Positions 2,055 through 47,363 are shown, counted from the stretch's first letter. The stretch is 64,000 bases of DNA from an uncultured Bacilli bacterium (GCA_947628965.1 CANRBV010000001.1:41225-105224); one strand, 5' to 3'. The notes: a model not told the origin generated them from the letters alone. Numbers and translations are program-made.

Positions 2055-3488
2055 TTAATTTACATCATAAAAATTTTCCCAAGGATCTTTTCTTTTTAAT
2101 CTTTTTAAAGCCATCTCCATAGTAATTTCATCAGGATTTATTTTATCAAGTTCACTCCAACGAATGGGCATGGATACTCTAAGTTTTTTTCGTAATCGAA
2201 GTGAATATGGGGCTACACTCGTTGCACCTTTAGTATTTCTTATCCAATCAATAAAAATTTTTTCTTTTCGGTTTTCTTTTCTTATGTTGCTTGTATATTT
2301 TTCTGGCCATTTTGCTTCCATAAAATCAGCAATATTTTTGGCAAATTCTCGAAAATTTTTCCATGTTTTTAACTTTTTAGTTGGAATTACGACATGATAT
2401 CCTTTTCCTCCACTCGTTTTCAAAAAAGAAGTTAAATTTAATTCATCTAAAACACTTTTTAAATCTTTTACTCCTTCTCTTACTTTTTCTAAAGAAAGAT
2501 TTTCATCGGGATCTAAATCAAACACAAGACAATCTGGGGTATTTAAAGCATTTATTCGACTGCCCCAAACATGAAATTCAAAACTATTCATTTGTACTTC
2601 TGAAATAAGTCCAACAATATCTTTAAAATAATAATAATCTTCACGATTGCCTTTTTCGTTAGCTATACGTATCTTGCCAATTCCTCTATTTGAATTTTCC
2701 AAATGCTTTTTAAAAAATATTTCACCCTTTATTCCTTCTGGTGCTCGAATTACAGAAACAATTCTTTTTTCAATATAAGAAATCATTCTTTGCGAAACTT
2801 TTTTATAATAATTTACAATATCCATTTTTGTTACATTCGAATATATTTTTTTTGTAGGATTTGTTATAGTAATCCCCTCAACTATTCCATATTTTTTGGA
2901 ATTTTTCTTAAATTTTATTCCGTTTTCAATTTCTTTCATGGTTCTACCAGTTTTAATACTTGTATCATATTCTCCTATATTTTTATACATATATTCATTG
3001 TCCTTTTCTTTTATTAGTAGCCAATTGTCTTCTTTAAAATGCACAAGCATCCAACGCCCTTTTAAACGTTTTCCATGCAATACAAATTTTATGGAACCAT
3101 TTGTAAAATCATTTGTAAAATTTTCTAAAGGCTCCCAGTAGCCTTCATCCCAAATCATAACGGTTCCTCCTCCATATTCTTTTTTGGGAATTACTCCTTC
3201 AAAATGACGATAACTTAAAGGATGATCTTCTACATGAATTGCAAGGCGTTTTTCATTTGTATTATAAGATGGTCCCTTAGGAACAGCAAAGCTTATCAAA
3301 GTACCCTTCCATTCTAAACGTAAATCATAATGATCTTTACGAGCAAGGTGATGTTGTACGACAAAAACTAATTTTTTATGAGTTTTTGTTATTTTACCTA
3401 ATGGTTCATTTGTTTTTTTAAAATTCCTTTTTTCTTTATATTTTTTTAATTTATCCATAATAAAAAACCTCTTTAATAGTATTTTCAA
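2055..3488 (-). CDS. ligD: LigD-like NHEJ protein: 3'-phosphoesterase domain + polymerase/primase domain, no ligase domain
   Basis: N-terminal segment (VVQHHLARKDHYDLRLEW...) matches the LigD phosphoesterase domain; C-terminal about 300 aa match the LigD Pol (archaeo-eukaryotic primase-like) domain. Confidence 0.7.
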   Translation of the reverse strand: MKILLKRFFIMDKLKKYKEKRNFKKTNEPLGKITKTHKKLVFVVQHHLARKDHYDLRLEWKGTLISFAVPKGPSYNTNEKRLAIHVEDHPLSYRHFEGVIPKKEYGGGTVMIWDEGYWEPLENFTNDFTNGSIKFVLHGKRLKGRWMLVHFKEDNWLLIKEKDNEYMYKNIGEYDTSIKTGRTMKEIENGIKFKKNSKKYGIVEGITITNPTKKIYSNVTKMDIVNYYKKVSQRMISYIEKRIVSVIRAPEGIKGEIFFKKHLENSNRGIGKIRIANEKGNREDYYYFKDIVGLISEVQMNSFEFHVWGSRINALNTPDCLVFDLDPDENLSLEKVREGVKDLKSVLDELNLTSFLKTSGGKGYHVVIPTKKLKTWKNFREFAKNIADFMEAKWPEKYTSNIRKENRKEKIFIDWIRNTKGATSVAPYSLRLRKKLRVSMPIRWSELDKINPDEITMEMALKRLKRKDPWENFYDVN

Positions 3489-3509: not shown

Positions 3510-4925
3510 CTAAAAAGGTTTTTTTAATTTATATATGCAATCTCTATCCACAATGACGGCGGGATATTTTTTAAAAAATGGTGGTATTTTTTCTAAAGTA
3601 GGGGTATCTGCATCTTCATAACGATCCAGCATTAAACAATTATCTCCCGTATTTCCTCCTAATAAATTATCGGTTGTATAATAACCTAAACGAGCTAGTT
3701 CTTCTTGTAAAAACGTTTCAATTTGTTTTTGGATTTCTAAAGAATATTCTCTTACAGAGTGGGTTAAATACTTTTGAACTTCAATACCTGCTAGAATTAT
3801 GCCATTTTCATCGCGAACAAAACATTCTTCCAAATTTTTTATAATAATATATAAATTTGGACAAAGGGGATCTTTTTCATAAGACCATTTTGTTCTACAT
3901 AATTTAAAGGCATAATCTCCTATTTGGTAACAAGTGCTACAGGATCCACTGCCAATGTATTTTGTATCACTTTTTTTACTTAAAGACAAGTATTTCGAAA
4001 CAAATTTTTGTAACGTTTTACCAAGACCGTAGGCAAACTCTCTTTCAAGAATGGAATGATTTTCTTTTGATGTAGCAAAGTAACGTAAAAATTGATAAAA
4101 TTGTTCTTTTAATTCTTGACTCAATTTTTCAGTATAATGTTCATAAATATAAAGTTGATATTTCGAAGAGGTTTTAAAATAGGTATCTATATCCCTTAAA
4201 AATTCTGGTTGAGAAGATTTACTTTTTAACAAACACTCTCCTAAATCATTTTCTTTATAATTTTCTAAAATAAATTTTTTTAATTTTAAAAATGTTTTGA
4301 AATCCTTTTTTTCATAAAAATGGTAAGCAAGCAAGGAAACCTCTTCTTGTGGCATTAAAAGATTACTTTGCATTTTTTGTTTTTGCGCACTGGTTAGATA
4401 TTTTAAAATGTCTTCATAAAAGAAAGAAACTTTTGCAAAATGGTTTTCCACAAGATAATTCATAAATTGCCCTCTTATTTTTAAATCTTCATGAACAGAT
4501 AATTGTTTTAAATAGTCTTGATTTTCTATAAAAGATGCAAAAAGAAAATCGAATAAAAGAATGGGTGCTGAATTAAAATATTTTATTATTTTTGGAAGGT
4601 TGTTGATAAGATATTCTTTACCCCAAGTAGTATGATAAAGCATATTTTTTATTTTTTCAGCATCAAAAAAGTTTGGGTTTTTGGCTTTTTTTAAAGTATC
4701 TAAAAATTCTTCTTGGTATTCTTCCATGTCATAAATAATTTGTAAGCAAAAAGAAGGATAAGATTTTTTTAATTTGGGTAAAAAACCTGAAACAATTTGT
4801 TTTCTTGTCGTAGTATTTTCTATATTACGAATGACTTGTGCAAGCAAATTAAGTTCTGTATCGGATAAATGATAAATAAAAGATACATTGCCTTTTTCTA
4901 ATTCTATAAGTGGATTTAATGACAT
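3510..4925 (-). CDS. Hypothetical protein (471 aa)
   Basis: Long ORF directly downstream of the LigD-like gene with 21-nt spacing; no recognised motif. Confidence 0.6.
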   Translation of the reverse strand: MSLNPLIELEKGNVSFIYHLSDTELNLLAQVIRNIENTTTRKQIVSGFLPKLKKSYPSFCLQIIYDMEEYQEEFLDTLKKAKNPNFFDAEKIKNMLYHTTWGKEYLINNLPKIIKYFNSAPILLFDFLFASFIENQDYLKQLSVHEDLKIRGQFMNYLVENHFAKVSFFYEDILKYLTSAQKQKMQSNLLMPQEEVSLLAYHFYEKKDFKTFLKLKKFILENYKENDLGECLLKSKSSQPEFLRDIDTYFKTSSKYQLYIYEHYTEKLSQELKEQFYQFLRYFATSKENHSILEREFAYGLGKTLQKFVSKYLSLSKKSDTKYIGSGSCSTCYQIGDYAFKLCRTKWSYEKDPLCPNLYIIIKNLEECFVRDENGIILAGIEVQKYLTHSVREYSLEIQKQIETFLQEELARLGYYTTDNLLGGNTGDNCLMLDRYEDADTPTLEKIPPFFKKYPAVIVDRDCIYKLKKPF

Positions 4926-5077
4926 AGTACCACACCCTTTTTAAGTAATTGTCTGCTATTATAACCAAAATAATTTTAAAAGTAAAGATGGAATTTACTA
5001 AAAATTGGCAGGTAATTTTAACATACATATGTTTGCTTTTTCTTAAAAACTGAGTATAATAAAAATGGTGATGCCAA

Positions 5078-6292
5078 ATGGAGTTAATTGAAAAATTAAA
5101 AATTCTAGCGGATAGCGCAAAATATGATGCCTCCTGTTCTTCTAGCGGAAGCCGAAACGAAAGTAAAAATGGCATAGGAGCAACGGCCTTTAGTGGAATC
5201 TGTCACTCTTTTGCAAGTGATGGAAGATGTATTTCTCTACTCAAAATTTTAATGACCAATAGTTGTATTTTTGATTGTAAATACTGTTTAAATCGTAGAA
5301 GCAATTCGATTAAGAGGGCCTTGTTTACTCCCGAGGAAATTTGTGAAATTACTTTAAATTTTTATCGACGCAATTATATAGAAGGTTTATTTTTAAGTTC
5401 AGGTATTCTAAAAAGTCCTGATTATACGATGGAACTTTTAATTAAAACGATTACTCTATTACGTAAAAAATATCATTTTGGTGGCTATATTCATTGCAAG
5501 GCTATACCTGGAGCAAGTGAAAAATTATTAAAGGAATTAGGTCGTTTGGTCGATCGCTTAAGTGCAAACATAGAGCTTCCTACAGAAAATGGTTTAAAGC
5601 TTTTGGCTCCTAATAAGGAAAGTAAAAAGATAGATAAAATTATGCAATATGTAAAAGAAAATCAAAGCAAACGATTTGTTCCAGCAGGACAAAGTACCCA
5701 AATGATTATTGGAGCAACGAAAGAAACAGATTTAGAAATCATGAATAAAAGTGCTGCAATGTATAAAAATTATCATTTAAAACGGGTCTTTTATTCAGCT
5801 TATATTGGAGTCAATCATGATTCTTTACTCCCTACGTTAGAAAATCCTCCCTTAAAACGGGAAAATCGTCTTTATCAAGCGGATTGGTTACTGCGCTATT
5901 ATCATTTTAAAGTAAATGATTTATTAAATGAAAATAATCCGAATTTCAACATTTTGGTTGACCCCAAGTGTGACTGGGCGCTTCGTCATTTAGATGAGTT
6001 TCCAAAAGAAATCAACGAGTGCTCCTATCAAGATTTATTAAAAATTCCTGGCATTGGCGTTACAAGTGCTAAACGTATTTTTTCTTCTCGTAAGGTATTT
6101 ACTCTTACTTTTGATGACTTAAAAAAAATGGGTGTTGTATTAAAAAGAAGCAAGTACTTTATAACTTGTAATCATAAATATTTATTAGACCCAAGTATGT
6201 ATCAAAAAAAGTTTATTGAATCCAATTTAATTTTAGAAGAAAAAACGCCTTTAAAAAAAGAGTATGAACAATTGAGGTTATTTAATGAATAA
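5078..6292 (+). CDS. Radical SAM protein, putative DNA modification/repair family
   Basis: CxxxCxxC radical-SAM cluster (CIFDCKYC); N-terminal Cys-rich block and overall layout typical of the radical-SAM DNA-repair family that pairs with DUF4130. Confidence 0.75.
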   Translation: MELIEKLKILADSAKYDASCSSSGSRNESKNGIGATAFSGICHSFASDGRCISLLKILMTNSCIFDCKYCLNRRSNSIKRALFTPEEICEITLNFYRRNYIEGLFLSSGILKSPDYTMELLIKTITLLRKKYHFGGYIHCKAIPGASEKLLKELGRLVDRLSANIELPTENGLKLLAPNKESKKIDKIMQYVKENQSKRFVPAGQSTQMIIGATKETDLEIMNKSAAMYKNYHLKRVFYSAYIGVNHDSLLPTLENPPLKRENRLYQADWLLRYYHFKVNDLLNENNPNFNILVDPKCDWALRHLDEFPKEINECSYQDLLKIPGIGVTSAKRIFSSRKVFTLTFDDLKKMGVVLKRSKYFITCNHKYLLDPSMYQKKFIESNLILEEKTPLKKEYEQLRLFNE

Positions 6293-7028
6293 CGTTTATA
6301 TTTATAATGATACATTTTTAAGTCTTTTAAATCTTATAGATTATTTAATTTTACATCATATAAAGCCTTATCAAATTAAAAATAGCCAATATCAAAGCAC
6401 TTTACTGGATAATGTTGTCCATCTTGCTATCGAAGAAAAAGATATTGCAGGTAAAATTGTTAGGGAAATGGGTTCTTATTCTTTACAACAAATGTATTAT
6501 GTTTTTCTATCGAATGTGGAAGCTAAAGAACTTATCTTATATTATTTTTACTTAAATGGGTTAAAATACTATAGGGACATTTTTAAATATCGCAATTTAA
6601 AATGCGTGGATAAAGTTTTAAAGATTGCAAAACTGGTTCAAAACGAGTGCCATAAATACAAAGGTTTTGTTCGATTTAAAGAGTTTAATAATCACGTTTT
6701 ATACGCTGAAATAGAACCTAGTAGTGATTGTTTAGAAATTCTTTCTATTCATTTTAAAAGGCGTTTAAAAAATGAGTATTGGATTATAAAAGATGTAAGA
6801 AGAAATCTATTAAGTCTGTATGATAAAAAGGAATTTCATATCGTAGATGGCACTACTTTTTCATTAGATAATATTTTGGAAAGCCGTGAAGAAGAAAAAA
6901 TAGAAAATTTATGGAAAGCTTTTTATCAAACGATTGGAATTAAGGAACGAAAGAACGATACTTGCCGTAGGAATTTTATGCCTAAAAAATATTGGAAATA
7001 TATGTTAGAGGTGAAAAGTGAATTATGA
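6285..7028 (+). CDS. DUF4130-type probable DNA metabolism protein (radical-SAM partner)
   Basis: 8-nt overlap with the upstream radical-SAM gene; size and conserved pairing. Confidence 0.6.
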   Translation: MNNVYIYNDTFLSLLNLIDYLILHHIKPYQIKNSQYQSTLLDNVVHLAIEEKDIAGKIVREMGSYSLQQMYYVFLSNVEAKELILYYFYLNGLKYYRDIFKYRNLKCVDKVLKIAKLVQNECHKYKGFVRFKEFNNHVLYAEIEPSSDCLEILSIHFKRRLKNEYWIIKDVRRNLLSLYDKKEFHIVDGTTFSLDNILESREEEKIENLWKAFYQTIGIKERKNDTCRRNFMPKKYWKYMLEVKSEL

Positions 7029-8539
7029 AAAAAGTAATAATGAAAGAAGAATTACAAGAAAAAATGCAAGAAAGTATTCATCTTTTATGTGGTATTGTAA
7101 AAGAGACTTTAGGGCCAAACGGAAAAAATGTTTTAATTGATCACTCCTTATTTTCTCCTTTTATTACAAATGATGGAGCAACAATTGCTAGAAATATTGA
7201 GTCGGAAGATGCTATTATCAATACGATATTAGAAATTGCCAAAGAGTCTTCTTTAAAAACCGATAGTAAAGTTGGGGATGGAACGACTACAACGCTAGTG
7301 TTACTAGAAAGTATTTTTGATCATGGGTTGGAACTTATAAAAAAGGGGATGCCTCCTATTCTTTTTAAAAAAAATTTAACTAAAAGTTTAGAAAAGGTTT
7401 TAAATTCTTTAGAAAAAGAAAAACATCTTCCTAAAAATAAGGAATATGAAAGCTTAAGTATTATTGCTGCCAACGAAGAGGAGCTTGGGAAATTTATAAA
7501 TCACGTTTATCAAAAAATTAAAACGAAAAATGGAATTGAAATTGTAGAAACGGACCAAAGCATCTTAAGTGTTCAATATGAAAATGGATATCAATTTCCC
7601 ATAGAACTTGGTAGTCCACTATTTTTAAAAGAGCAAGAGAAAATTTTTTTAGAAAATCCTGTATTTCTTTTTGTTGAAGAACAAAACTCTTCTTTAGAAG
7701 ATTATAGTATGTATTTAAATGCTGCTATGAAAAATAAATGGGATGTTGTTTTTATTGCTAAAAATTTTAATGATTCCTTTATCCAAGAATGTCTTTATTT
7801 AAATGATACGCAAACCATAAATTGCTTTTTGCTTAAAATTGGAGAGTATGGAATAAAAGAATCAATTATTTGGAAAGATATAAAATTTATAACGAGTCAA
7901 AAAAAGAATTGTAAGGGAATTACGTTAACAAAAGAAAAGGCCATTTTAAAATTTACAAATTCTTTAAAAACACAAGAATATTTAAAAACAATTGAGGAAG
8001 AACTAAAGAAAATAAAAGATGAATTTGATGAAGATTTTTTTAAAAAACGTATGGCCATGTTTTTAAATGGTTTGGCAACTATTGTTTTGGGTGCCCCAAC
8101 AAAAATTGAATGTCACGAGAAAAAAATGCGTCTTATCGACGCATTGTGTGCTTTAGAAAGTGCTAAAGACGGAGTTGTTACAGGTGGAGGTATTACGTTT
8201 TTAAAAATTGCAAATGAATTAGACATTAAAAATGAAACGGACCAAATTTTACAAGAAGCTTTGAAAATACCTTTTAAACAAATTCTTTTAAATTCGGGAC
8301 TTTCTTATGAAAAAATAAAAAAGACGATTGAAAAGGAAGAATATCATGCTGTTTTTAATGTTTCTAAAGATCGTTTTGAAAAAGTAAGCGACACACAAGT
8401 AATTGATTCTTATAACGTTTTAAAACAAACTTTAGAAAACGCTTGCTCCATTGCCATGATGTTACTTACAACCAGTAGTTTAGTAATCAATGAGCAAGAA
8501 AATAATTTAGGAAAAATAAACGATTATAATGAACTATAA
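7025..8539 (+). CDS. Divergent chaperonin (Cpn60/TCP-1 family), closer to group II/III than GroEL
   Basis: LGPNGKNVLID...ITNDGATIARNIE and GDGTTTTLVL ATP-binding motifs; VVTGGGITFL near the C-terminus; 504 aa; 4-nt overlap with the DUF4130 gene. Confidence 0.65.
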   Translation: MKKVIMKEELQEKMQESIHLLCGIVKETLGPNGKNVLIDHSLFSPFITNDGATIARNIESEDAIINTILEIAKESSLKTDSKVGDGTTTTLVLLESIFDHGLELIKKGMPPILFKKNLTKSLEKVLNSLEKEKHLPKNKEYESLSIIAANEEELGKFINHVYQKIKTKNGIEIVETDQSILSVQYENGYQFPIELGSPLFLKEQEKIFLENPVFLFVEEQNSSLEDYSMYLNAAMKNKWDVVFIAKNFNDSFIQECLYLNDTQTINCFLLKIGEYGIKESIIWKDIKFITSQKKNCKGITLTKEKAILKFTNSLKTQEYLKTIEEELKKIKDEFDEDFFKKRMAMFLNGLATIVLGAPTKIECHEKKMRLIDALCALESAKDGVVTGGGITFLKIANELDIKNETDQILQEALKIPFKQILLNSGLSYEKIKKTIEKEEYHAVFNVSKDRFEKVSDTQVIDSYNVLKQTLENACSIAMMLLTTSSLVINEQENNLGKINDYNEL

Positions 8540-8771
8540 ATAGACACAATTTTAATTAAAAATGTTTTATAGTTTTTTGCTTCTTTATACTTTTTTTATA
8601 TTCTTGTTTCTAAAAGATTCGTTTATTCCCAATACTTAATATTTACAATAATTCAGCTATCTTTAATTTAACAGACACTGTCTGGAATTTTGGATATTTA
8701 GCGTTTATCAAAATAATTTTTTAAAAAAACATATCTATTGGAATCATAGAGAAATATTTATCCAAAAAAAA

Positions 8772-8800
8772 GAATACCTGCGCGTATTCCTTTCTCTAGA
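8772..8800 (+). terminator. Putative terminator after the chaperonin-like operon
   Basis: gaatac-ctgcgc-gtattc hairpin followed by a T-rich tract. Confidence 0.3.
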
Positions 8801-8968
8801 TTGTTTTTTTAAATACCTGGTCGCATTTAAAAACAATTTATTAAAACATAACTTTTATTATGTCTTAATCATAAATGGGGCAAAATTCCAATAGGCATAA
8901 AACCTTTTTTATTTGCTCTCTTTTAATAACTTTATTTTATTAAAATTCCTTTTATTTGTCAATAAATT

Positions 8969-10663
<1,695 letters not shown>

Positions 10664-10780: not shown

Positions 10781-11371
10781 TTATCTTTTTAATAAATTAT
10801 AAAAACTATTTGGCTTTAAATTTAACATTTCTATTGCTTCTTTACTTTTTATTTTTTTATTTTTCCATAATTCTATAACATAATCATAATTACTTGGCTT
10901 TTCTATTTTTGGGCGACCAAATCTTATTCCTTTATTTTTTGCATTAGAAATTCCTTCCTTTTGCCTTTGCTTAATAAATGACCTTTCTTGCTCTGCGACA
11001 TAACTTAATATTTGCAATACTAAATCACTAATAAATGTGCCTAATAAATCTTTATTATTCCTTGTATCTAATAATGGCATATCTAAAACAACAATATCTG
11101 CTTTTATATTTTTTGTAATTTCTTTCCATTCTTCAATTATTGCATTATAATTTCTTCCTAATCTATCAATACTTTTAATTACTAATAAATCATTTTCCCT
11201 TAATATATTTTTTACTATGCTATATTGCTTTCTTTCAAAATCTTTTCCACTTTGCTTATCAATATAAATATCTCTCTCTTCTATGCCATATTCTTTAAAT
11301 GCTAAGATTTGCCTTTCTTCATTTTGCTCTTTGCTACTAACTCTACCATAGCCAAATACTTTATTTTTCAT
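10781..11371 (-). CDS. Small serine recombinase (resolvase/invertase) with C-terminal HTH
   Basis: GYGRVSSKEQNEERQ catalytic serine motif; about 190 aa. Confidence 0.85.
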   Translation of the reverse strand: MKNKVFGYGRVSSKEQNEERQILAFKEYGIEERDIYIDKQSGKDFERKQYSIVKNILRENDLLVIKSIDRLGRNYNAIIEEWKEITKNIKADIVVLDMPLLDTRNNKDLLGTFISDLVLQILSYVAEQERSFIKQRQKEGISNAKNKGIRFGRPKIEKPSNYDYVIELWKNKKIKSKEAIEMLNLKPNSFYNLLKR

Positions 11372-11795: not shown

Positions 11796-12293
11796 TTAAA
11801 CACTATATAAATTCTTTATTTCTTCGCTTGGCAATACTAATGTAAAATCAATATCATAAATATTTATTAACTCATTTAATTTTTTAACAATTTCTTTTGC
11901 TATATCATTATGCTTATAACCATGTACCCCTGTCCCTATGCTAACACTAATAATACTTTTATAGCCATTATCTTTTGCTGATATAAATATTTTTTCATAA
12001 CTATTTAATAAATCTAATAGGGGAGAATTGCTTTCATAATATTTTGGAGAATATATATGCAAAATATCAATACCTAAATCAAAACCAGGACTATATCTAA
12101 TTTCATTAACTCTCATATTTTCTTTATAATTCTTTTTACAATAATCTTCTAACAATTCTTTATTTGCCTTTTTATATATTGCCCCACAAACACCACTACC
12201 ACATATCATATATTTATTATTACTATTAACTATTAAATCTTTATTTTCTAAATAATCAAATATATTGCCACTTATAACATTTAACTTACCCAT
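11796..12293 (-). CDS. Macro-domain protein (ADP-ribose binding / ADP-ribosyl hydrolase-like)
   Basis: ISGNIF...IVNSNN...GSGVCGAIYKKAG pattern corresponds to the macro-domain Gly-rich ADP-ribose pocket. Confidence 0.65.
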   Translation of the reverse strand: MGKLNVISGNIFDYLENKDLIVNSNNKYMICGSGVCGAIYKKANKELLEDYCKKNYKENMRVNEIRYSPGFDLGIDILHIYSPKYYESNSPLLDLLNSYEKIFISAKDNGYKSIISVSIGTGVHGYKHNDIAKEIVKKLNELINIYDIDFTLVLPSEEIKNLYSV

Positions 12294-12310: not shown

Positions 12311-13216
12311 TTATTCAAATTTATTTAATATTTGCCCATTTCTATAATAATCTTTATCAGCATATCTAATGCATATTACATTATTATTGCTATCTAAATA
12401 AATAATAATATTATCAATATCATTACTTTTTATTCTATAACCTTTTGACCCATAACCCTCAAAACCATCTAAACTCTCGCTATCTGCTTTAATACTATCA
12501 AATTTATCAATACCTACTTTATTTAAAATATTATATATATTATCAGCTTGTTCTTCACTTATATTCATTTCGCTTTTTATTTTATTACTATAATCAATAT
12601 TTTTACCACTATTTAAAACAGCAATAACTAATATTATTATAACAAATATTATAATTCCTAAAAATACATAACCTAAAACATTTAGCCTTTTATATGCCTT
12701 TTCATTTATAATAATCTTACAATTAGGACATTTAATATCGCTAATACTTAATTCTTTGCCACACTTAGGACATTTTAAATCGCCTTTTGATAAATTAACA
12801 ACACTATTTAAACATTTAACAAACTTACTCCCAGAAAATGCACCATTTACATAAACACTAATAACTTTATCTTCGCCATTTTCTTTATAATTAACAATTA
12901 TATATTGCACATCTTCCTTTATTTGCTTTTTGCCCGTGCCACTTAAACCACCTAAAACTAAACCAACATTACCAAACAATAAACCACCAGCAACACCTCT
13001 GCCAATAGCACTTTTATTTTTTTCTACTATATGCTTATCACTAATAACCCCAGCATTAACAATATCTTTTAATGCTATTTCCTTAAATACTTGCCCTCTA
13101 ATATCGCAATATTTTAAATTATAATTAGTAATTTTTAATATGCAATTCGCATCTTCTCTAATTTCTAATCCCTCATAATGCTTTGCATTAACTTTTAATA
13201 TTTCTTTTTCTTTCAT
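12311..13216 (-). CDS. Hypothetical zinc-ribbon membrane protein
   Basis: Gly-rich segment; CPKCG...CPNCK zinc ribbon; single TM helix; C-terminal domain of about 90 aa. Confidence 0.55.
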   Translation of the reverse strand: MKEKEILKVNAKHYEGLEIREDANCILKITNYNLKYCDIRGQVFKEIALKDIVNAGVISDKHIVEKNKSAIGRGVAGGLLFGNVGLVLGGLSGTGKKQIKEDVQYIIVNYKENGEDKVISVYVNGAFSGSKFVKCLNSVVNLSKGDLKCPKCGKELSISDIKCPNCKIIINEKAYKRLNVLGYVFLGIIIFVIIILVIAVLNSGKNIDYSNKIKSEMNISEEQADNIYNILNKVGIDKFDSIKADSESLDGFEGYGSKGYRIKSNDIDNIIIYLDSNNNVICIRYADKDYYRNGQILNKFE

Positions 13217-14257: not shown

Positions 14258-14587
14258 ATGGAAAACAATTTAAAGAAAATAAGAAACAGCAAAAACTTAT
14301 TACAGACTAAAGTTGCTATGGATTTAAACATAACCCAAGAGACTATATCTTCTTATGAAACTGGTCGCGTTTTTCCAAGTTCTGATATGCTTATTAAAAT
14401 TGCTGATTATTATAATACATCTATTGATTATTTACTTTGCAGAACTAAATATGATATGCCTATTGATAATATTAAACCAAATAATATCTCAGATAATGAT
14501 TTTATTCTTTTAAATAAGATAAATAAATTATCTCCTATCAATAAATCAAAAGTTGAAAGTTACATTGATGGATTAAATGATAGATGA
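14258..14587 (+). CDS. XRE-family (Cro/CI-type) HTH transcriptional regulator
   Basis: LLQTKVAMDLNITQETISSYETG helix-turn-helix; GGAGG RBS upstream. Confidence 0.8.
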   Translation: MENNLKKIRNSKNLLQTKVAMDLNITQETISSYETGRVFPSSDMLIKIADYYNTSIDYLLCRTKYDMPIDNIKPNNISDNDFILLNKINKLSPINKSKVESYIDGLNDR

Positions 14588-16034: not shown

Positions 16035-16111
16035 TGGGGCGAAATGTGGGGATCGAACCCACGCATACCGGAGCCACAATCCGGCGTGTTAACCACTTCA
16101 CCAATTCCGCC
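16035..16111 (-). tRNA. tRNA-His: tRNA-His (anticodon GUG) with encoded G-1 and 3' CCA
   Basis: Folded by hand: 8-bp acceptor stem including G-1:C73; anticodon loop TTGTGGC (GTG); T-arm GTGGG-TTCGATC-CCCAC; CCA encoded. Confidence 0.9.
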
Positions 16112-22740: not shown

Positions 22741-23640
22741 TTAAATTTTATTTTTTTTCTTCTTTTTAATAAGAAAATATCCACCAAGCACAAGAAGCAA
22801 AGCAACAGCAAAACTAATTAAAATGTATTTTAAATTAAAAGTTTTTGTTTCTTCTTGTTCATTTTCTTCAAGGATTTCATTTTTTTCATCTGTTTTGTTT
22901 TCTACTTCATCTTCTTTACTTACATCTGTTTCGTTTGTATTTGCATCATTATTTATAGTATTGTTGTTTTCAGTAGTAGTATTAGAACTTGCATTATTAT
23001 TAGTAGTAGTAGTACTTGTATTCTTATTCGTAGTACTCGTATTTTTATTTTCTTCTTTTTCTTTATCTTGTTCTTTATTTTTATCGGTACTAGAAGACTC
23101 CTCTTTAGAAGAAGTATCTTCCTCTTGGTTTTCACTACTATTTATTTTATAAGTAAAGTTGTTTTTTTCAACTTCAGGAGTAATTTCATGAGACTTCCAA
23201 GCATTATCTAATGTTGTTAAAGACCCACATTGAATCGTATAGGAGATATCTTTTTTACTAGAAGTATCAAATAGAATATTTCCTAGTACTAAATCTTTAT
23301 CGATATTTAATAAATTGTGACTTGTTCCTACGCCACCTGTTACTACAACAATATTTAATTCTTTTGTTTTATCATCATAAGAAGTTTTTGTAGTAAAATT
23401 ACTACTTGTTAGTTTGCTATCTAAATTCATTTTTTGAAAGTTGATATTTCCATCTACTTTTAACGTAATATCAAGTCCTCCAATAAAACCATCTTCAAAA
23501 TGTAAAACGGATTTTATATTTCCATTACCCTCTTCGTGAAAAGTTAACTTTGTTGCAGCGTTTACAGAAGAAAGAGAAAGAAATAAACTGAGTACCAAAG
23601 TGGTAACAATTTTTATAAATGTTCTTTTCATTCTCTTCAC
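22741..23640 (-). CDS. Secreted membrane-anchored surface protein: N-terminal beta-rich (possibly cohesin-like) module, S/T/N/E-rich linker, C-terminal TM anchor
   Basis: Signal peptide; about 150-aa beta-strand-type segment; low-complexity linker; C-terminal hydrophobic helix + KKKKKNKI tail; 4-nt overlap with the giant upstream gene. Confidence 0.6.
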   Translation of the reverse strand: MKRMKRTFIKIVTTLVLSLFLSLSSVNAATKLTFHEEGNGNIKSVLHFEDGFIGGLDITLKVDGNINFQKMNLDSKLTSSNFTTKTSYDDKTKELNIVVVTGGVGTSHNLLNIDKDLVLGNILFDTSSKKDISYTIQCGSLTTLDNAWKSHEITPEVEKNNFTYKINSSENQEEDTSSKEESSSTDKNKEQDKEKEENKNTSTTNKNTSTTTTNNNASSNTTTENNNTINNDANTNETDVSKEDEVENKTDEKNEILEENEQEETKTFNLKYILISFAVALLLVLGGYFLIKKKKKNKI

Positions 23641-26600
23641 CTCTTATTACTAATTTCCATTTGTTTTAACTTACTATATTCTTTTAAATCCTTTAGAACA
23701 ATTGATGTACTTGTTAATCGTTGTCCTTCATGCGTAATAGCATCATTTACACGATATAGATAAGCTCGAATACTGGTGCTAGACTTTCTCATTTTTTCGT
23801 ATTCTTCTTTACTCATAACATATAGCCACGTTCCATTTGCAACATCATAAACCGTATGATCACTATTTAATTCAGCAAAGATTAATTGATATCCGCCATA
23901 GACTTTTGCCTCATCATTACTATCTGCAATTAATACTGTATTAAACGCAGGGTTACCACGATAAGAACCTTCTATAACAACAGATCCAGCTGTAATTTTA
24001 CCATCTGGGTCGTTTTCACAACCACTTTCTAAATAACAATAATCACTTGTTAATACACCAATATTTGTAATATCGACATTATCTCCTGGAGGAGCAATCA
24101 CATCAATTTCTGCACCAGATAAAACATTATTACCATCAGATTCAATCTTAATATAATTTATATCATTATAAGTCCATAATTGACTTTCACTATCAGTATT
24201 TTGTCCCATGAAGTAAATGATTTCTTCTGGTTTTTCGCTTGTTAAAGTAAACGTACCTTTTCTTGCAAGATGCCAATCATTATCATTTCCTGTAGAACTT
24301 ACATATACTTTATATTTAGTAATTGTATTTTCATCTAGTTTATCATTTTCTACTAAGGCATGATACTTAATACCACTTACAGACATTCTATTATTTAAAT
24401 TTAATAAAACATAAGCATTTCCATTATCCACTGTAATACTTGGTTTATCACTGGTTTGATTTAAAGTTTTTACTTTTTCTGTGCCTTTAAATCCTGTTTC
24501 AATTTTACCATCAATTAAGTTGTTTACTTTTAATGTAGCATAATCCATTTCTTCGTTTTCATTATCGACAATTTCATTTGCTTCTTTTACATTTGAAGTA
24601 ATACTAAAGGCATCCTTTTTAACACTACCATCATGACTTATTTTTACTTCTTCTAAAGTAACTTCATTCGTTTTATGTAAATAATAATCATAAGCAACCA
24701 CACTATATGTATAAGCTCTATTATTTTCCGCTCCAACGTTGTCAACAAATTCATTCGTACCCTTTTCAACAAAGCCAATAGAAACACCATTACGAAGAAT
24801 TTCATAACCTAAAATCTTATCGTTGTCTTTATTAACATTAAACTCTAAAGTAACACGTTTATTTTGACTATCAGCATCTCTAATAGAAGATTCTAAAATA
24901 TTGGCACCTTCATTAATTCCAACACTTTGACGCAAAGCAAAACGTCTTGCTTGATCATTTAAGTAGTAAATCGCTCTTTTTTCTTTTGCATAGTTTAATT
25001 CTTGTAATTCTTCTTTTAAAGAGCTAGATGCTTTTAATCCCCAAATTTCAAAAAAGTTCGTTAAGTCTTTCTTGACAGCCATACAAGCATAAAGAATAGT
25101 TAAATCGTCTCTAGAATAATTTTTGGTATTCTTATATGTACGAGCAATTTTATTTATTTTTGCGTAAATTGAATTTTGATCTTCAAATGTTTTTTCATTA
25201 TCATAAGCAAGATGTAATTGCCAGTACATTCCTAACTGAACAAAAACATTTTGAGCTCTTCCCGTTGTATGGGAAGTTACTTTTTCATAAATTTTATCAT
25301 AACCATTGTTTTCTAAACGGGAAGGATCACTATCATTGCTTGTTTGAGCAAGCAAAGAATAAATATTATTCGTTACTTCTGCAAAAACAGTATCTTTTAA
25401 ATTGATTTGATGTCCAACTTCATGACTAATACCCCATCCAAAATAACCTGTTTTGGTATTACTATTGCGACTGGCTTGAACAAGGCCTGCAATTGAACCA
25501 TATTCAATGCCTATATGGTAACCTCCAGCATACATAAAAGCTCCATCAAACATTTGCATATAACGAACATTAATTCTCGCTTTTGGCATTTTATCCGTTT
25601 TTTCTGTTTGGTCTGTATCACTAAATCCTTTTTGACGATAGAATAGTTCCATCATTTCATCGAAGGCTTCCATAGATTCATATAAACGATTTGTTTTTTC
25701 TTCAATGGTTTTTTTATTTGATTTTAAAGCATCTTCTACAGCTACACTGGAAACGGACAACAAACCGTATTTTGTTACAATTTCTGTAGAGCCTAAAACA
25801 CTTTTTTGTTTATCAAAGCTTTTTCCGATAGATGCATAAGCACTTTCTAAAGTACTATTGTAATTTTCTAATTCTTTAATATATTTTTTTATTGCTGCTT
25901 TTTTATCTGTCTCATTTTCCAATAAGGTTGTATCAACCATTGGAATTTTAGTTCCTCCACTTACACGCACTTTTATTGGATTAGTAGTACTAGGTGTACT
26001 TGTATAGCGAATATAAACGCTTCCACCACGTTCATCAGTAGAAGAACCAATTTGTGGAACTGTAATAATATTTAAACCCTTATGTAAACTTTCCGTTGTA
26101 TAAGCTTTATTCCATTCACTTGCTTCAGCATGGTATTGAGTAAATATCACTTGGGCATTAATTGCCCCATTACTTCCAACATAAACATTGATTGTCTCTC
26201 CAGGTCTAGCAACAATTCCTAAAGGTTGATAATCACTAATCGTCATTGCAAATTTAACATGACCATTATACGAATTGGAAATGTTTGGATTTAGAGTAAT
26301 AACATCATCAATATGTTCATCATTTAATATTTTCTCCGCATAATCCAAATCTGCAAGTACGCTATCTTTATAAGGAGAATACTCTCCATTATCTTGTTCA
26401 TTTGCTCTTTTTCTTAATTCATTAATTTGCTTTTGATCTACGCCCTCTGCTAGGACAAGACGAAGATCGTCTGTAAATAAGGCAGCAACATCGTCCACTA
26501 ATGAATCGTAATGATAAAATTTTACTTCATCAATTTTAATATCACGAACATTTCCAGCAACAGTTAATCCAAATGCTACCGCTTTAGCAGTAATTGGATT

Positions 26601-28808
26601 TTCTAATTTTAATACATAGTATTTACGTCCCTTTTCATCTTGTTTTGAAAGAAGGGTTCCTTTTACTTCTTTACGCTCTGTATTGTCATAAATCTCTTGG
26701 TTAGACTCCCAATAATGCAATTTAACATCATTGCTATTTGGTCCACCAGATTTTAAAGAAGCCGCATAATTATCTGGAACTGTTAAGACAAATTCATCCA
26801 TTTGATAGGCATTATCTAAAACAATCACTGGGGTTCCTAAGTTGTAAGCACCATTTGCTGAAATTTGCCAATCATTATGATACCAATAAGTGTCATAATG
26901 GTCATCAACAATCGCAAATTTATTATCATTCGTCATGGTTCCCGTATGATAGAATACGTTTTCAATATGATCAGTTTTCTTATTTTTTTGATCATAACCA
27001 CTATTAATTAATTTATATTTTGGTACAATTGCAGCACCTGCTTCTTTCGTAGTTGCTTTTACTAAAGTATAACTATCACTTTCTCCTAAGTCATTTACTC
27101 CAAGTACATAAGCTTCATATTCAGTATCAGCTTTTAACCCACGTACAGAATAACTATTTGTCGAAATAGATTCTACAACAGAATAAACAGCCGTTCCAAC
27201 TTCACGATAATATAATTTATAAGATTTGGTATCGTCCATTTTTTTCCAACTAAAGTCTATTCCTCCATAGGTAGGAGTTGCAACCACCATATCTACTTTT
27301 GGTGGTTTTCTTGTTGCTTGTGGAGTTCCTTCGTGAGCATCACTCCAACCACTACGCCATTCTTGATTTACAGATTGAACGTATATATAATATGTTTCAT
27401 AATTTTTTAAATCTTCAATTGTAAAGGTTGTAAAAGTAGTTTGGAAAATAACTCCACTTTCCATTTTAGGCCCTACAATCTTAATTTCATAACCTGTTAC
27501 ATTTGGTACATCGTGAAAAGTAATAGTTAGTTGTTCACTTTTTGTATCATCAACATGAATATTTTGAGGAACATAAAATCCATCTGGTTCTTTTGTTTTT
27601 GTTTTAACATTATTTAAAAATTCTACTTTTGCTATATCTGCTAAAGTATTTGAAGAAGTTTCGGTAATTATAATAGTTACTTTTTTAACAGCAACTTGTT
27701 TTCCTAAGTCTACTTTAATTGTCCCTTCACTTGCTTCGTCTGTAAATAAATGTACTTCATTTAAACCTTGTAAAGTATCATCTACTTCATATTCAAGAGT
27801 TTCATTATCCTCTGTTAAAACGAGTAATTTCATTTTTTTAGGAATATTTTCTTCTCCTATTCCAATTCTAATTTCACTCATTTCAACAGTTTCACTATTA
27901 GAATTTTTTCCTAAATCAAGTGCAAACTCAATTGGATTATCTATAGAAATAGCTTCTTCATTTGCAGATTTTAAAGTTACAATTCCTGTATCACTAAATA
28001 AATCACTTAAATTACTTTCCTCACTAATTGTTGTTCCATTTGCTACTTCTAAAGACACATTTTCATTATTCATGATAAGACTTGTATTTTCAATTTTAGC
28101 ACTTTCTTTTTTAGAATTTAAAATTGCTGTTATGTAATTTAAATCTGCAATATCAACAACTCCATCTAAATTTAGATCATTTTTCGTGTCATTATTTTTA
28201 ATAGATTCCATTAAAATCTCTTCATCTTTTTTATTTACTTGATTGTCTTGATTTACATCACCAATTTCAAACATTCCAGCTTCATTAGATAAACTTATTC
28301 TTTTAGAAAAATCATCTAAAGTAACATCTACGCTATAGGTTACAAAATGGTTCCCGCTAAGTTCTAAAGTATACTTTCCTGTATTTAGTGAATATAAATT
28401 CATACTATAGTAAACTATATTTTCACTAGTAACGTCTCCTGATAAAACAAAACCATTCGTATTTCGTTTTGTAATTAAAGAACGGATAGTTTGTGTACCT
28501 AATTTAATAGAAGTTTCTAAAATACCATCTTTAGCGTTTTTCATTTCATTTAATGAAATAGAGGCTTTGTTATTATTTTCATCAATAATGGATAAAGCAA
28601 TATTTGTTTCTTCTCTATTTCGAAAAGGAAGAGCTAAATGAAGTTCTACTTCTATATTCCCTTTTTCTTGTATATCTCCTAAAGCAATACTACGAGTTTC
28701 TTCCCTTGTTTCCATTGCCAAAACAATTAAAGGTGAAAAATTATAAAAAAGCATTGCCCATATTAATAAGATTGATACTAGTTTATTTAAAATTTTCATA
28801 CTAACCAC
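23637..28808 (-). CDS. Giant secreted multidomain protein (1723 aa) with dockerin-like Ca-binding repeats, FN3-like modules and an M60-like/enhancin-type HExxH zinc-peptidase domain
   Basis: Signal peptide; GDVNQDNQVN...DLNLDGVVDIADL dockerin repeats; GWGISHEVGHQ zinc-binding motif. Confidence 0.7.
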   Translation of the reverse strand: MVSMKILNKLVSILLIWAMLFYNFSPLIVLAMETREETRSIALGDIQEKGNIEVELHLALPFRNREETNIALSIIDENNNKASISLNEMKNAKDGILETSIKLGTQTIRSLITKRNTNGFVLSGDVTSENIVYYSMNLYSLNTGKYTLELSGNHFVTYSVDVTLDDFSKRISLSNEAGMFEIGDVNQDNQVNKKDEEILMESIKNNDTKNDLNLDGVVDIADLNYITAILNSKKESAKIENTSLIMNNENVSLEVANGTTISEESNLSDLFSDTGIVTLKSANEEAISIDNPIEFALDLGKNSNSETVEMSEIRIGIGEENIPKKMKLLVLTEDNETLEYEVDDTLQGLNEVHLFTDEASEGTIKVDLGKQVAVKKVTIIITETSSNTLADIAKVEFLNNVKTKTKEPDGFYVPQNIHVDDTKSEQLTITFHDVPNVTGYEIKIVGPKMESGVIFQTTFTTFTIEDLKNYETYYIYVQSVNQEWRSGWSDAHEGTPQATRKPPKVDMVVATPTYGGIDFSWKKMDDTKSYKLYYREVGTAVYSVVESISTNSYSVRGLKADTEYEAYVLGVNDLGESDSYTLVKATTKEAGAAIVPKYKLINSGYDQKNKKTDHIENVFYHTGTMTNDNKFAIVDDHYDTYWYHNDWQISANGAYNLGTPVIVLDNAYQMDEFVLTVPDNYAASLKSGGPNSNDVKLHYWESNQEIYDNTERKEVKGTLLSKQDEKGRKYYVLKLENPITAKAVAFGLTVAGNVRDIKIDEVKFYHYDSLVDDVAALFTDDLRLVLAEGVDQKQINELRKRANEQDNGEYSPYKDSVLADLDYAEKILNDEHIDDVITLNPNISNSYNGHVKFAMTISDYQPLGIVARPGETINVYVGSNGAINAQVIFTQYHAEASEWNKAYTTESLHKGLNIITVPQIGSSTDERGGSVYIRYTSTPSTTNPIKVRVSGGTKIPMVDTTLLENETDKKAAIKKYIKELENYNSTLESAYASIGKSFDKQKSVLGSTEIVTKYGLLSVSSVAVEDALKSNKKTIEEKTNRLYESMEAFDEMMELFYRQKGFSDTDQTEKTDKMPKARINVRYMQMFDGAFMYAGGYHIGIEYGSIAGLVQASRNSNTKTGYFGWGISHEVGHQINLKDTVFAEVTNNIYSLLAQTSNDSDPSRLENNGYDKIYEKVTSHTTGRAQNVFVQLGMYWQLHLAYDNEKTFEDQNSIYAKINKIARTYKNTKNYSRDDLTILYACMAVKKDLTNFFEIWGLKASSSLKEELQELNYAKEKRAIYYLNDQARRFALRQSVGINEGANILESSIRDADSQNKRVTLEFNVNKDNDKILGYEILRNGVSIGFVEKGTNEFVDNVGAENNRAYTYSVVAYDYYLHKTNEVTLEEVKISHDGSVKKDAFSITSNVKEANEIVDNENEEMDYATLKVNNLIDGKIETGFKGTEKVKTLNQTSDKPSITVDNGNAYVLLNLNNRMSVSGIKYHALVENDKLDENTITKYKVYVSSTGNDNDWHLARKGTFTLTSEKPEEIIYFMGQNTDSESQLWTYNDINYIKIESDGNNVLSGAEIDVIAPPGDNVDITNIGVLTSDYCYLESGCENDPDGKITAGSVVIEGSYRGNPAFNTVLIADSNDEAKVYGGYQLIFAELNSDHTVYDVANGTWLYVMSKEEYEKMRKSSTSIRAYLYRVNDAITHEGQRLTSTSIVLKDLKEYSKLKQMEISNKR

Positions 28809-46799: not shown

Positions 46800-47363
46800 T
46801 TAAGATAGCTGTTTAAAAATATATATATTTTGCAACGAATCATCTTTTTTATCACAAGTAATTAACGTTAAATTAGTTTGATTTTTTTCTCTTCGGATAG
46901 AAATTTGACCATCTTTTTTTTCACTATAAATATAAAGAAGTTGATAGGTATATTGAATATCATTAAAGTAAACATACGCAATATCGCCTTTTTCTAATTT
47001 ATAAAGGTTTTTAAAATACGCTATTTTGCTTGTTCCACTGTGACTAGCTAATATAAGATTTCCGCATTTAACATCTGGCATGGTTGAAGTTTCAATAACT
47101 TGAATATTTTGATTTACATTATTTTTAGGATTTCCATAAGCATAAAAACCTTTTTTTAGTTTGATTTTAGGGATTTCTATTACTGCAATATAATTATTTT
47201 TAGTTAGAACTGTTTTGTCTGTAGAAAGAAAATTGTTTATTCTTTTTTCTTCTTTTTGGTCTTCAAAATAATACGTAAAAGAAATAGCCAAAAATAGAAA
47301 AAGAAATAAAAGACACAAAACCTTGATAAAAAGCTTTTTTCTTTTCACCATTTTTTTCTCCAA
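46800..47363 (-). CDS. Sortase-family transpeptidase
   Basis: N-terminal TM anchor; LILASH (His) and TLITCD (TLxTC catalytic Cys) motifs. Confidence 0.8.
   Translation of the reverse strand: MEKKMVKRKKLFIKVLCLLFLFLFLAISFTYYFEDQKEEKRINNFLSTDKTVLTKNNYIAVIEIPKIKLKKGFYAYGNPKNNVNQNIQVIETSTMPDVKCGNLILASHSGTSKIAYFKNLYKLEKGDIAYVYFNDIQYTYQLLYIYSEKKDGQISIRREKNQTNLTLITCDKKDDSLQNIYIFKQLS

Follow-up and report, generated by a model that had tools for sequence, protein, structure and literature searches.

A stretch of 64,000 nucleotides (nt) from an uncultured Bacilli bacterium (GCA_947628965.1, CANRBV010000001.1:41225-105224), which is analysed here at its whole length and referred to as the window, carries at positions 5078-8539 an operon of three overlapping genes. 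A radical S-adenosylmethionine (rSAM) protein gene and a DUF4130 gene are followed in it by the gene of a highly divergent paralog of the chaperonin GroEL. We regard it as probable, if with some reserve, that this operon is inducible by DNA damage and that the chaperonin paralog is dedicated to the rSAM/DUF4130 complex, as a partner that does without GroES. The constant linkage of the three genes and the apparent DNA-damage switch in front of them are the reasons why this GroEL copy probably serves only the repair enzyme. The operon would provide a pathway-dedicated chaperonin paralog together with an extended form of the SOS-linked rSAM/DUF4130 module, neither of them remarked upon before; in the published work on the module that full-text searches retrieved, chaperonins are not mentioned in this context.

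The rSAM-DUF4130-chaperonin operon

The operon consists of the following genes:

5078-6292, + strand: gene of the rSAM "DNA modification/repair" protein, 404 amino acids (aa); TIGR03916, PF04055 and HHH; COG4277 in the nomenclature of PMC8565304
6285-7028, + strand: DUF4130 / TIGR03915 gene, 247 aa, standalone, without a uracil-DNA-glycosylase (UDG) domain
7025-8539, + strand: divergent group I chaperonin paralog gene, 504 aa, Cpn60 fold

An earlier note on this DNA had described three genes joined by overlaps of 8 and 4 nt, and the open reading frames (ORFs) were recovered at exactly these positions, all on the + strand. The rSAM and DUF4130 frames share 8 nt, and the DUF4130 and chaperonin frames share 4 nt (ATGA). 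The motifs CIFDCKYC, GDGTTTTLVL, ITNDGATIARNIE and GGGITFL are all found in the translations of the window. Both the DUF4130 gene and the chaperonin gene have a GAGGT(G) Shine-Dalgarno sequence, in each case within the preceding gene, and we infer from the gene overlaps that the three genes are co-transcribed and translationally coupled.

The first two genes belong to the TIGR03916/TIGR03915 pair, at full score and in adjacent position. The pairing of rSAM and DUF4130 named in the earlier note is thereby borne out by profile hidden Markov models (HMMs), as both proteins score above the curated cutoffs. The rSAM protein matches TIGR03916 with 612.6 bits (cutoff 343.5), in addition to PF04055 and HHH, the C-terminal helix-hairpin-helix being matched by HHH/HHH_3 at residues 311-340. 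In a set of 72 sequences the cysteines of its CX3CX2C motif are nearly or fully invariant (C63 and C67 in 71, C70 in all 72), and C20, C42, C51, C89 and C364 are further near-invariant cysteines. The DUF4130 protein matches PF13566 with E = 4.6e-43 and TIGR03915 with 202.5 bits (cutoff 112.25). The HMM search detected no UDG domain in the DUF4130 protein of the window, a fusion that is frequent, if not universal, in the module, and the lengths in its family (median 248 aa, maximum 256 aa) are those of a standalone protein. The isoelectric points (pI) are about 9.2 for rSAM and about 9.0 for DUF4130, values of about 9.0 and 9.4 being given for the two partners in the comparison with the chaperonin. 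The chaperonin is acidic, with a median pI of about 5.2.

Conservation of the three-gene linkage

One genome per GTDB species was scanned with the peptides PFITNDG[VA]T and GDGTTTTLV, and at least 269 genomes encode a relative of the chaperonin. The gene order was compared in the best 80 of these 269 species-level genomes. DUF4130 lies directly 5' of the chaperonin gene in all 80, and on every contig that extends far enough the rSAM gene comes before DUF4130. The frames of DUF4130 and the chaperonin overlap by 4 nt in 56 of 79 loci, and none of the 79 has a positive gap; the distance from rSAM to DUF4130 is -16, -8, -4, -1 or 0 nt, with the exception of one locus. These best 80 genomes are uncultured gut metagenome-assembled genomes (MAGs) from rabbit, mouse and Hadza human samples. 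Nearly all of them bear one of the labels Bacilli, Tenericutes, Mycoplasma sp., Erysipelotrichaceae, Firmicutes or Bacillota, and three of them Muribaculaceae.

A protein-cluster search (5.8 billion) returned a family of about 500-528 aa, mostly 515-517 aa, at 41-64% identity to the chaperonin of the window, and one relative at 98%. The family forms about 41 clusters at 50% identity and has no curated model. Two relatives are named "hypothetical protein" by NCBI and one "chaperonin GroEL" by JGI; among the matches listed, the named relatives all come from "Bacilli bacterium" MAGs. Three relatives at 64%, 47% and 42% identity all lie in rSAM-DUF4130-Cpn60 operons with differing flanks. The two most divergent full-length members found, at 35% identity, keep the operon arrangement as well, and the same arrangement is found in members at 35-64% identity from independent collections.

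The occurrence of the three-gene arrangement is far beyond chance. Its presence in every one of the 80 species-level genomes, and in members as distant as 35% identity, means that the linkage is not a trivial or strain-specific rearrangement, the possibility that the earlier note had set against its own reading. By unbiased ORF clustering, the only recurrent neighbours of the operon are the LigD-type 3'-phosphoesterase/primase-polymerase (PE/Pol) gene, in 26-28 of 81 loci, and a short-chain dehydrogenase gene, in 16 of 81, and the remaining flanks are variable. Such a strict, frame-overlapping linkage to two repair genes in the midst of variable flanks argues for a shared function.

Fold and nucleotide site of the chaperonin

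The chaperonin matches PF00118 (Cpn60_TCP1) with E = 5.2e-43 and 147.9 bits (cutoff 34.3) and misses all GroEL cutoffs, which range from 352 to 1041 bits. Of the NCBIfam GroEL models the best, NF009487, scores 281 bits (cutoff 352); TIGR02348 reaches 264 bits (cutoff 582), and the models of the chlamydial variants, NF038370 and NF038369, reach 70 and 49 bits (cutoffs 600). Thermosome and CCT models reach 37-65 bits over the N-terminal 130 residues only, whereas the 281 bits of the GroEL model extend over the full length. In a PDB search, group I chaperonins of many phyla were retrieved at E values of about 1e-53 to 1e-55, and thermosomes and group III chaperonins at about 1e-17 or weaker. The protein is genuinely a group I chaperonin, if a very divergent one, and does not belong to group II or III.

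An AlphaFold2 model computed from the family alignment (predicted local distance difference test 89.7) displays the three-domain fold of equatorial, intermediate and apical domains. Foldseek aligns it with GroES-bound (cis) GroEL/Hsp60 subunits at TM scores of 0.84-0.86 and root-mean-square deviations of 3.5-4 Å. The N- and C-terminal beta-strands that contribute to the intra-ring sheet and the ring interface are predicted in the model.

With residues numbered as in Escherichia coli GroEL, T30, L31, D52, D87, T89, T90, D398, G416 and D495 show no variation among the 81 sequences of the family. P33 is present in 80 of 81 and T91 in 78 of 81, and G415 is variable. Of the hinge glycines, G192 and G410 do not vary, and G375 occurs in 72 of 81. 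Because the seven main nucleotide-site residues that were checked are all retained, we consider it very probable that the chaperonin works as an ATPase and is under purifying selection.

Divergence from canonical GroEL

The chaperonin is about 28% identical to the GroELs of E. coli, Bacillus subtilis and Mycobacterium tuberculosis, which are 60-63% identical to one another (the comparison sequences of the latter two species were entered by hand). The family forms a single clade on a long stem in a neighbour-joining tree, which agrees with the divergent chaperonin described in the earlier note. That note had weighed against its own reading an ordinary GroEL phylogeny accompanied by a groES gene; the phylogeny is unusual, and neither groES nor CIRCE (controlling inverted repeat of chaperone expression) lies nearby. 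A tblastn search with GroES queries of E. coli and B. subtilis, likewise entered by hand, found no GroES gene in the window or in the first 87 related loci, and GroES was detected in the 14 viral loci that served as positive control.

The divergence is unevenly distributed along the protein. Identity to canonical GroEL drops to 16% in the first intermediate segment and to 18% in the apical domain, although canonical apical domains are 63-67% identical to one another. Within the family, mean pairwise identity is 65% in the N-terminal part of the equatorial domain and 37% in the apical domain, which is also about 27 residues shorter than that of E. coli GroEL. Among the three proteins of the operon the chaperonin evolves fastest, with a mean pairwise identity of 47.5% as compared to 54.8% for DUF4130 and 74.5% for rSAM.

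Several residues with a known role in GroEL are replaced. Of the positions that contact GroES or substrate, L234 is changed to Ser or Ala, V264 to Ser and Y199 to Leu; L237 is kept, and Y203, F204, L259 and V263 likewise remain hydrophobic. In canonical GroEL, L234, L237 and V264 of apical helices H/I hold the mobile loop of GroES. The R197-E386 salt bridge is not conserved, and the inter-ring contacts A109, E434, R452, E461, S463 and V464 are not conserved either and vary within the family. The GGM tail is absent. In its place the family has a C-terminus of conserved length and sequence, LVINE[YH]xNNLNKxN[ED]Y[NT]E[LIMW] (8489-8536 in the window, residues 489-504), the last 12 residues of which (493-504) are predicted to be disordered. 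The acidic-aromatic-hydrophobic end of this tail looks like a docking peptide.

When the apical domain alone was searched against 1.84 billion representative proteins, 41 matches were obtained, all of them family members except two phage-like proteins. Outside the family, the apical domain thus matches P0195 and P0190 alone, two proteins of 478-484 aa at about 26% identity in which GDGTTT is lacking. The loci of the phage-like chaperonins are L172 (2346-3800), L173 (2201-3655) and L175 (1413-2849). The contigs that encode P0195 also bear the genes of a crAss-like capsid protein and of a YunG-like phage protein; the genes around P0190 are arranged similarly, with no phage domain recorded. The similarity hints at an evolutionary link between these phage proteins and the chaperonin family.

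Promoter and putative operator

Upstream of the rSAM gene the following elements were recognized:

5000-5010, + strand: A-rich/TTNCCA motif AAAAATTGGCA, about 10-12 nt 5' of the operator
5021-5036, no strand assigned: palindromic putative operator ACATACATATGTTTGC, its right arm overlapping the -35 element TTTGCT (5032-5037)
5055-5060, + strand: -10 element TATAAT, 17 nt 3' of TTTGCT
5067-5072, + strand: Shine-Dalgarno sequence GGTGAT of the rSAM gene, read from the sequence

The motif, the palindrome, the -10 element, the Shine-Dalgarno sequence and the ATG occur in a fixed architecture across species, and the 160 nt 5' of the rSAM gene are otherwise unalignable. Of 77 upstream regions, 75 have a TATAAT-like -10 element and all have a GGTG Shine-Dalgarno sequence. 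The operator family has the consensus C-RAAC-ANNT-GTTY-G, which is of the LexA/Cheo-box type. An exact RAAC-N4-GTTY overlaps the -35 element at 42-46 nt before the rSAM ATG in 54 of 70 loci; the background of this exact pattern is 0.092 per kb, or 116 occurrences in 1.26 Mb, of which about half are the operon sites themselves. The operator of the window reads ATAC-ATAT-GTTT, its left arm differing from GAAC at the first two positions. When the 64 kb are scored with a matrix derived from the operator sites, this site alone reaches 13 bits or more, and the matrix has few further matches in the related loci (1.36 Mb).

We take the Gram-positive LexA (Cheo) box to be CGAACRNRYGTTYC, or GAAC-N4-GTTC. 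Judged by its sequence, the operator motif is a putative low-GC form of this box, and it is positioned where a bound repressor would block the rSAM promoter. LexA control has been inferred for the rSAM/DUF4130(-UDG) module in Bacteroidetes, Verrucomicrobia and Alphaproteobacteria (PMC8565304), and likewise for the same gene pair in Clostridium acetobutylicum (CAC3343-3344; PMC3828012).

The A-rich motif 5' of the operator, AAAAATT(A/G/T)(C/G)CA, is found in most of 71 distinct upstream regions and is present even in L174, where the palindrome differs. It lies too far from TATAAT to be a -35 element, and possibly represents an UP element or UP-like element, or else a second protein-binding site.

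Regulation by heat shock was considered and rejected, since CIRCE was not found in the window and neither CIRCE nor a CtsR half-site occurs in any of the 77 upstream regions. The Rfam search of the window retrieved a single tRNA, and neither a riboswitch nor a leader upstream of the operon.

A box of the same type was also observed at a few positions outside the operon (L031, 5295; L053, 3362; L027, 6498; L068, 1178). It stands there before the genes of a 1044-aa SNF2-family helicase (in two species), of an MgsA/RarA AAA+ ATPase and of a Bro-N protein. The MgsA/RarA gene with the box is located just 3' of the chaperonin gene on the opposite strand, in convergent orientation. These three kinds of genes are possible further members of the same regulon.

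Proposed role of the chaperonin paralog

According to the reading we favour, a LexA-type repressor would keep the operon switched off until DNA damage occurs, and upon induction the basic rSAM iron-sulfur protein and DUF4130 would be produced alongside the acidic chaperonin paralog, in roughly equal molar amounts. Both rSAM and DUF4130 would be nucleic-acid-binding proteins that form a heterodimer. AlphaFold 3 predictions for a homologous pair likewise suggest a tight rSAM/DUF4130 heterodimer that handles single-stranded nucleic acid (bioRxiv 10.64898/2026.08.19.745780). The paralog, which would not be the general chaperonin of the cell, may act on this pair as a dedicated ATP-driven folding, assembly or holding factor that works without GroES, and may bind its clients via the family-specific apical surface, the conserved C-terminal peptide, or both. 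TIM-barrel-like proteins are over-represented, or even dominant, among the obligate clients of GroEL.

The earlier note had suggested either a client-specific chaperone or a scaffold. The acidic pI of 5.2, as opposed to the basic partners, favours the former, a chaperone or partner, and weakens the case for a DNA-binding scaffold.

Several points weigh against a dedicated chaperone. Co-transcription, LexA binding, ring formation and the contact between chaperonin and client are all inferred. Neither lexA, with or without the same box, nor recA was found in the window or in the fetched related loci, so that the identity of the repressor is deduced from the similarity of the motif and from precedent. 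The hydrophobic positions retained among the GroES and substrate contacts are compatible with the binding of a broader range of clients, and if canonical groES-groEL should be absent from these genomes, the chaperonin might also take part in general folding. Many other bacteria, finally, operate rSAM/DUF4130 without a dedicated chaperonin, and the need for one here is unexplained.

Alternative explanations

As an alternative to the folding helper, the GroEL-derived ATPase could be an integral ATP-driven subunit or scaffold of an rSAM machine that processes DNA lesions. Its ring might gate, load or recycle rSAM/DUF4130, or it might remodel damaged nucleoprotein or a protein-DNA adduct, or strip protein from damaged DNA. 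The overlapping genes, which imply near-stoichiometric synthesis, are in line with this idea, as are the family-specific apical domain, the invariant catalytic residues and the conserved disordered C-terminal peptide with its docking-like end ([DE]-Y-x-[EN]-hydrophobic). On the other hand, the protein is acidic like GroEL, and direct binding of DNA is unlikely because of this pI; moreover, its fold and predicted conformation are those of a standard chaperonin subunit, and no chaperonin is known to serve as a stoichiometric subunit of an enzyme. The present evidence does not separate an integral subunit from a dedicated chaperone, and we consider the integral subunit unlikely. If it were true, a chaperonin fold would be doing DNA-repair work instead of protein folding.

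It is more doubtful still that the paralog is simply the housekeeping chaperonin of the clade, which evolved fast in a reduced genome, lost its dependence on GroES and came to be parked behind rSAM and DUF4130. Neither a second GroEL gene nor a GroES gene turned up in the window and the 1.36 Mb of related loci, the latter amounting to about 1% of those genomes. The annotation of some members as "chaperonin GroEL" by JGI points in the same direction, and so does the retention of the ATPase site and of several general substrate-binding residues. Some relatives are labelled Tenericutes or Mycoplasma, and the loss of groESL is known from groups of Tenericutes/Mycoplasma. However, an identity of 28%, and of 18% in the apical domain, is far outside the known range of housekeeping GroELs, and the chaperonin is the fastest-evolving gene of its operon, with the changes focused on the apical domain. 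An SOS-like repressor palindrome without CIRCE or CtsR would be an odd regulation for an essential chaperone, and the strict linkage, with overlapping frames, to the two repair genes in all 80 species amid variable flanks speaks for a shared function. The genes for sporulation and for wall-anchored proteins described below also indicate that the hosts are not minimal mollicutes.

That the operon travels as cargo on a mobile element or serves in anti-phage defence instead of being a chromosomal repair module, as could be suspected from the two serine recombinase genes and the low-GC insert immediately 3' of it in the window and from the crAss-like phage contigs that bear the only similar apical domains outside the family (with the reservation on P0190 given above), is highly improbable: the defence system was rejected because PADLOC matched none of the six proteins tested (the three operon proteins and neighbours), and the phage or mobile origin because none of 2.9 million IMG/VR contigs contains the family, the only GroELs there being 24-31% identical and without rSAM/DUF4130 neighbours, and because the recombinase element is a local insertion missing from other loci, recombinases occurring in only 5 of 81 neighbourhoods and the flank of the window being syntenic with the insert-free L007.

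Comparison with known systems

The operon resembles the SOS-linked rSAM + DUF4130(-UDG) module (TIGR03916/TIGR03915; COG4277 with COG1573) in gene order, overlap and LexA-type box, and differs from it in the standalone DUF4130 and in the third gene of chaperonin fold. With canonical GroEL/GroES the paralog shares PF00118, the three-domain fold, the residues of the nucleotide site, the predicted ring-interface strands and the acidic pI. It is unlike canonical GroEL in its identity of only about 28%, the shorter apical domain, the replacement of L234 and V264 and the missing GGM tail, as well as in the lack of an adjacent groES and of CIRCE and in the location of its gene in an SOS-type operon.

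GroEL paralogs that are dedicated to a pathway or co-regulated with it, some of them without GroES, are known as GroEL2/GroEL3 of Chlamydia, GroEL1 of mycobacteria, GroEL2 of Myxococcus and the nif-linked groESL of rhizobia. The chaperonin described here is likewise an extra copy tied to a particular pathway. In contrast to those paralogs, it is encoded within the operon of the proteins presumed to be its clients, by what appears to be a translational fusion; the chlamydial variant models do not include it, and it is much more divergent than the mycobacterial, myxococcal and rhizobial paralogs.

Highly divergent chaperonins of group I type that work without co-chaperonin on a narrow set of clients are also known from phages, namely gp146 of phage EL (6tmt) and gp246 of phage OBP (6hdd). 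Both match the paralog more weakly (E = 2e-17 and 7e-14) than cellular GroEL does (about 1e-54), and in contrast to the phage chaperonins the family is chromosomal and absent from IMG/VR. A precedent for a chaperonin acting on a damage-response protein is found in E. coli, where GroEL is needed for the function of UmuC in SOS mutagenesis. There, the general GroESL is used, which is outside the SOS regulon, whereas here a private paralog apparently stands under a damage-inducible promoter.

The rSAM/DUF4130 pair is widespread and has repeatedly been predicted to be SOS-regulated, and it is still without known substrate or chemistry. Its obligatory coupling to a chaperonin in this clade suggests that the rSAM enzyme may be hard to fold or assemble, may be toxic, or may need an ATP-driven partner. 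The three proteins form a defined set for co-expression and thereby an experimental handle on the pair. If the paralog is indeed dedicated, it would be an unusually clean natural case of a group I chaperonin that has specialized in a single client system, and could tell the features of GroEL that serve client specificity from those that serve general folding. With regard to annotation, the family is labelled "hypothetical protein" or, misleadingly, "chaperonin GroEL" in a set of at least 269 species-level genomes.

Flanking genes and host

Around the operon the following features were noted in the window:

2055-3488, - strand: LigD-like gene with 3'-phosphoesterase and primase-polymerase domains, without ligase domain
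3510-4925, - strand: 471-aa protein of unknown function, divergent from the operon and sharing the operator-bearing intergenic region
8760-8801, no strand assigned: G+C-containing hairpin in the intergenic region 3' of the chaperonin gene, scoring as a - strand terminator for the recombinase gene
8969-10663 and 10781-11371: serine recombinases in the insert
11796-12293: Macro-domain protein in the insert
12311-13216: PH/glycine-zipper protein in the insert
14258-14587: XRE-type helix-turn-helix (HTH) protein in the insert

The recurrent neighbours of the operon (LigD-type; short-chain dehydrogenase) lie in the window at 2055-3488 and 46-783. A small DNA-repair neighbourhood that includes the LigD-like gene had been proposed in the earlier note. 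The gene is real and recurs in 28 of 81 loci, but it is not adjacent to the operon, since the 471-aa gene lies in between, and the linkage is loose: LigD PE/Pol is found within about 8-10 kb, on either side and on either strand. No Ku or ligase gene was seen beside LigD PE/Pol in the window or in the 3 kb beyond its start.

The 471-aa protein is without match in Pfam, NCBIfam and PADLOC, and its homologs occur in 4 of 80 loci, so it is not conserved across the clade. In the closer relatives L001 and L009 the position directly 5' of the operator is taken by a 548-aa unknown protein and a 77-aa XRE-type HTH gene.

The hairpin at 8760-8801 may also end the rSAM operon. Beyond it, a low-GC insert (20-24%) extends from 8969 to about 16000, between the operon and a tRNA gene (16038-16110, - strand). 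The chromosomal genes past the insert (DAP_DH_C, AAA, HAAS, ABC/FtsX) are syntenic with L007, from which the insert is missing, and the insert is therefore probably a mobile element that has integrated.

The MAGs labelled Tenericutes or Mycoplasma appear, from their gene content, to be walled, spore-forming Bacilli of about 27% GC; the sporulation genes and the wall-anchored SpaA/thioester-domain proteins indicate that these hosts are not minimal mollicutes. The surface genes of the host include a 1723-aa M60-like peptidase/fn3 protein (23637-28808) and a SpaA/thioester-domain protein (47345-49393). In a related locus (L082, 1092-3892), a sporulation cluster with spoIIAA, a sigF-like gene and spoVAC/D/E was identified from reading the translations.

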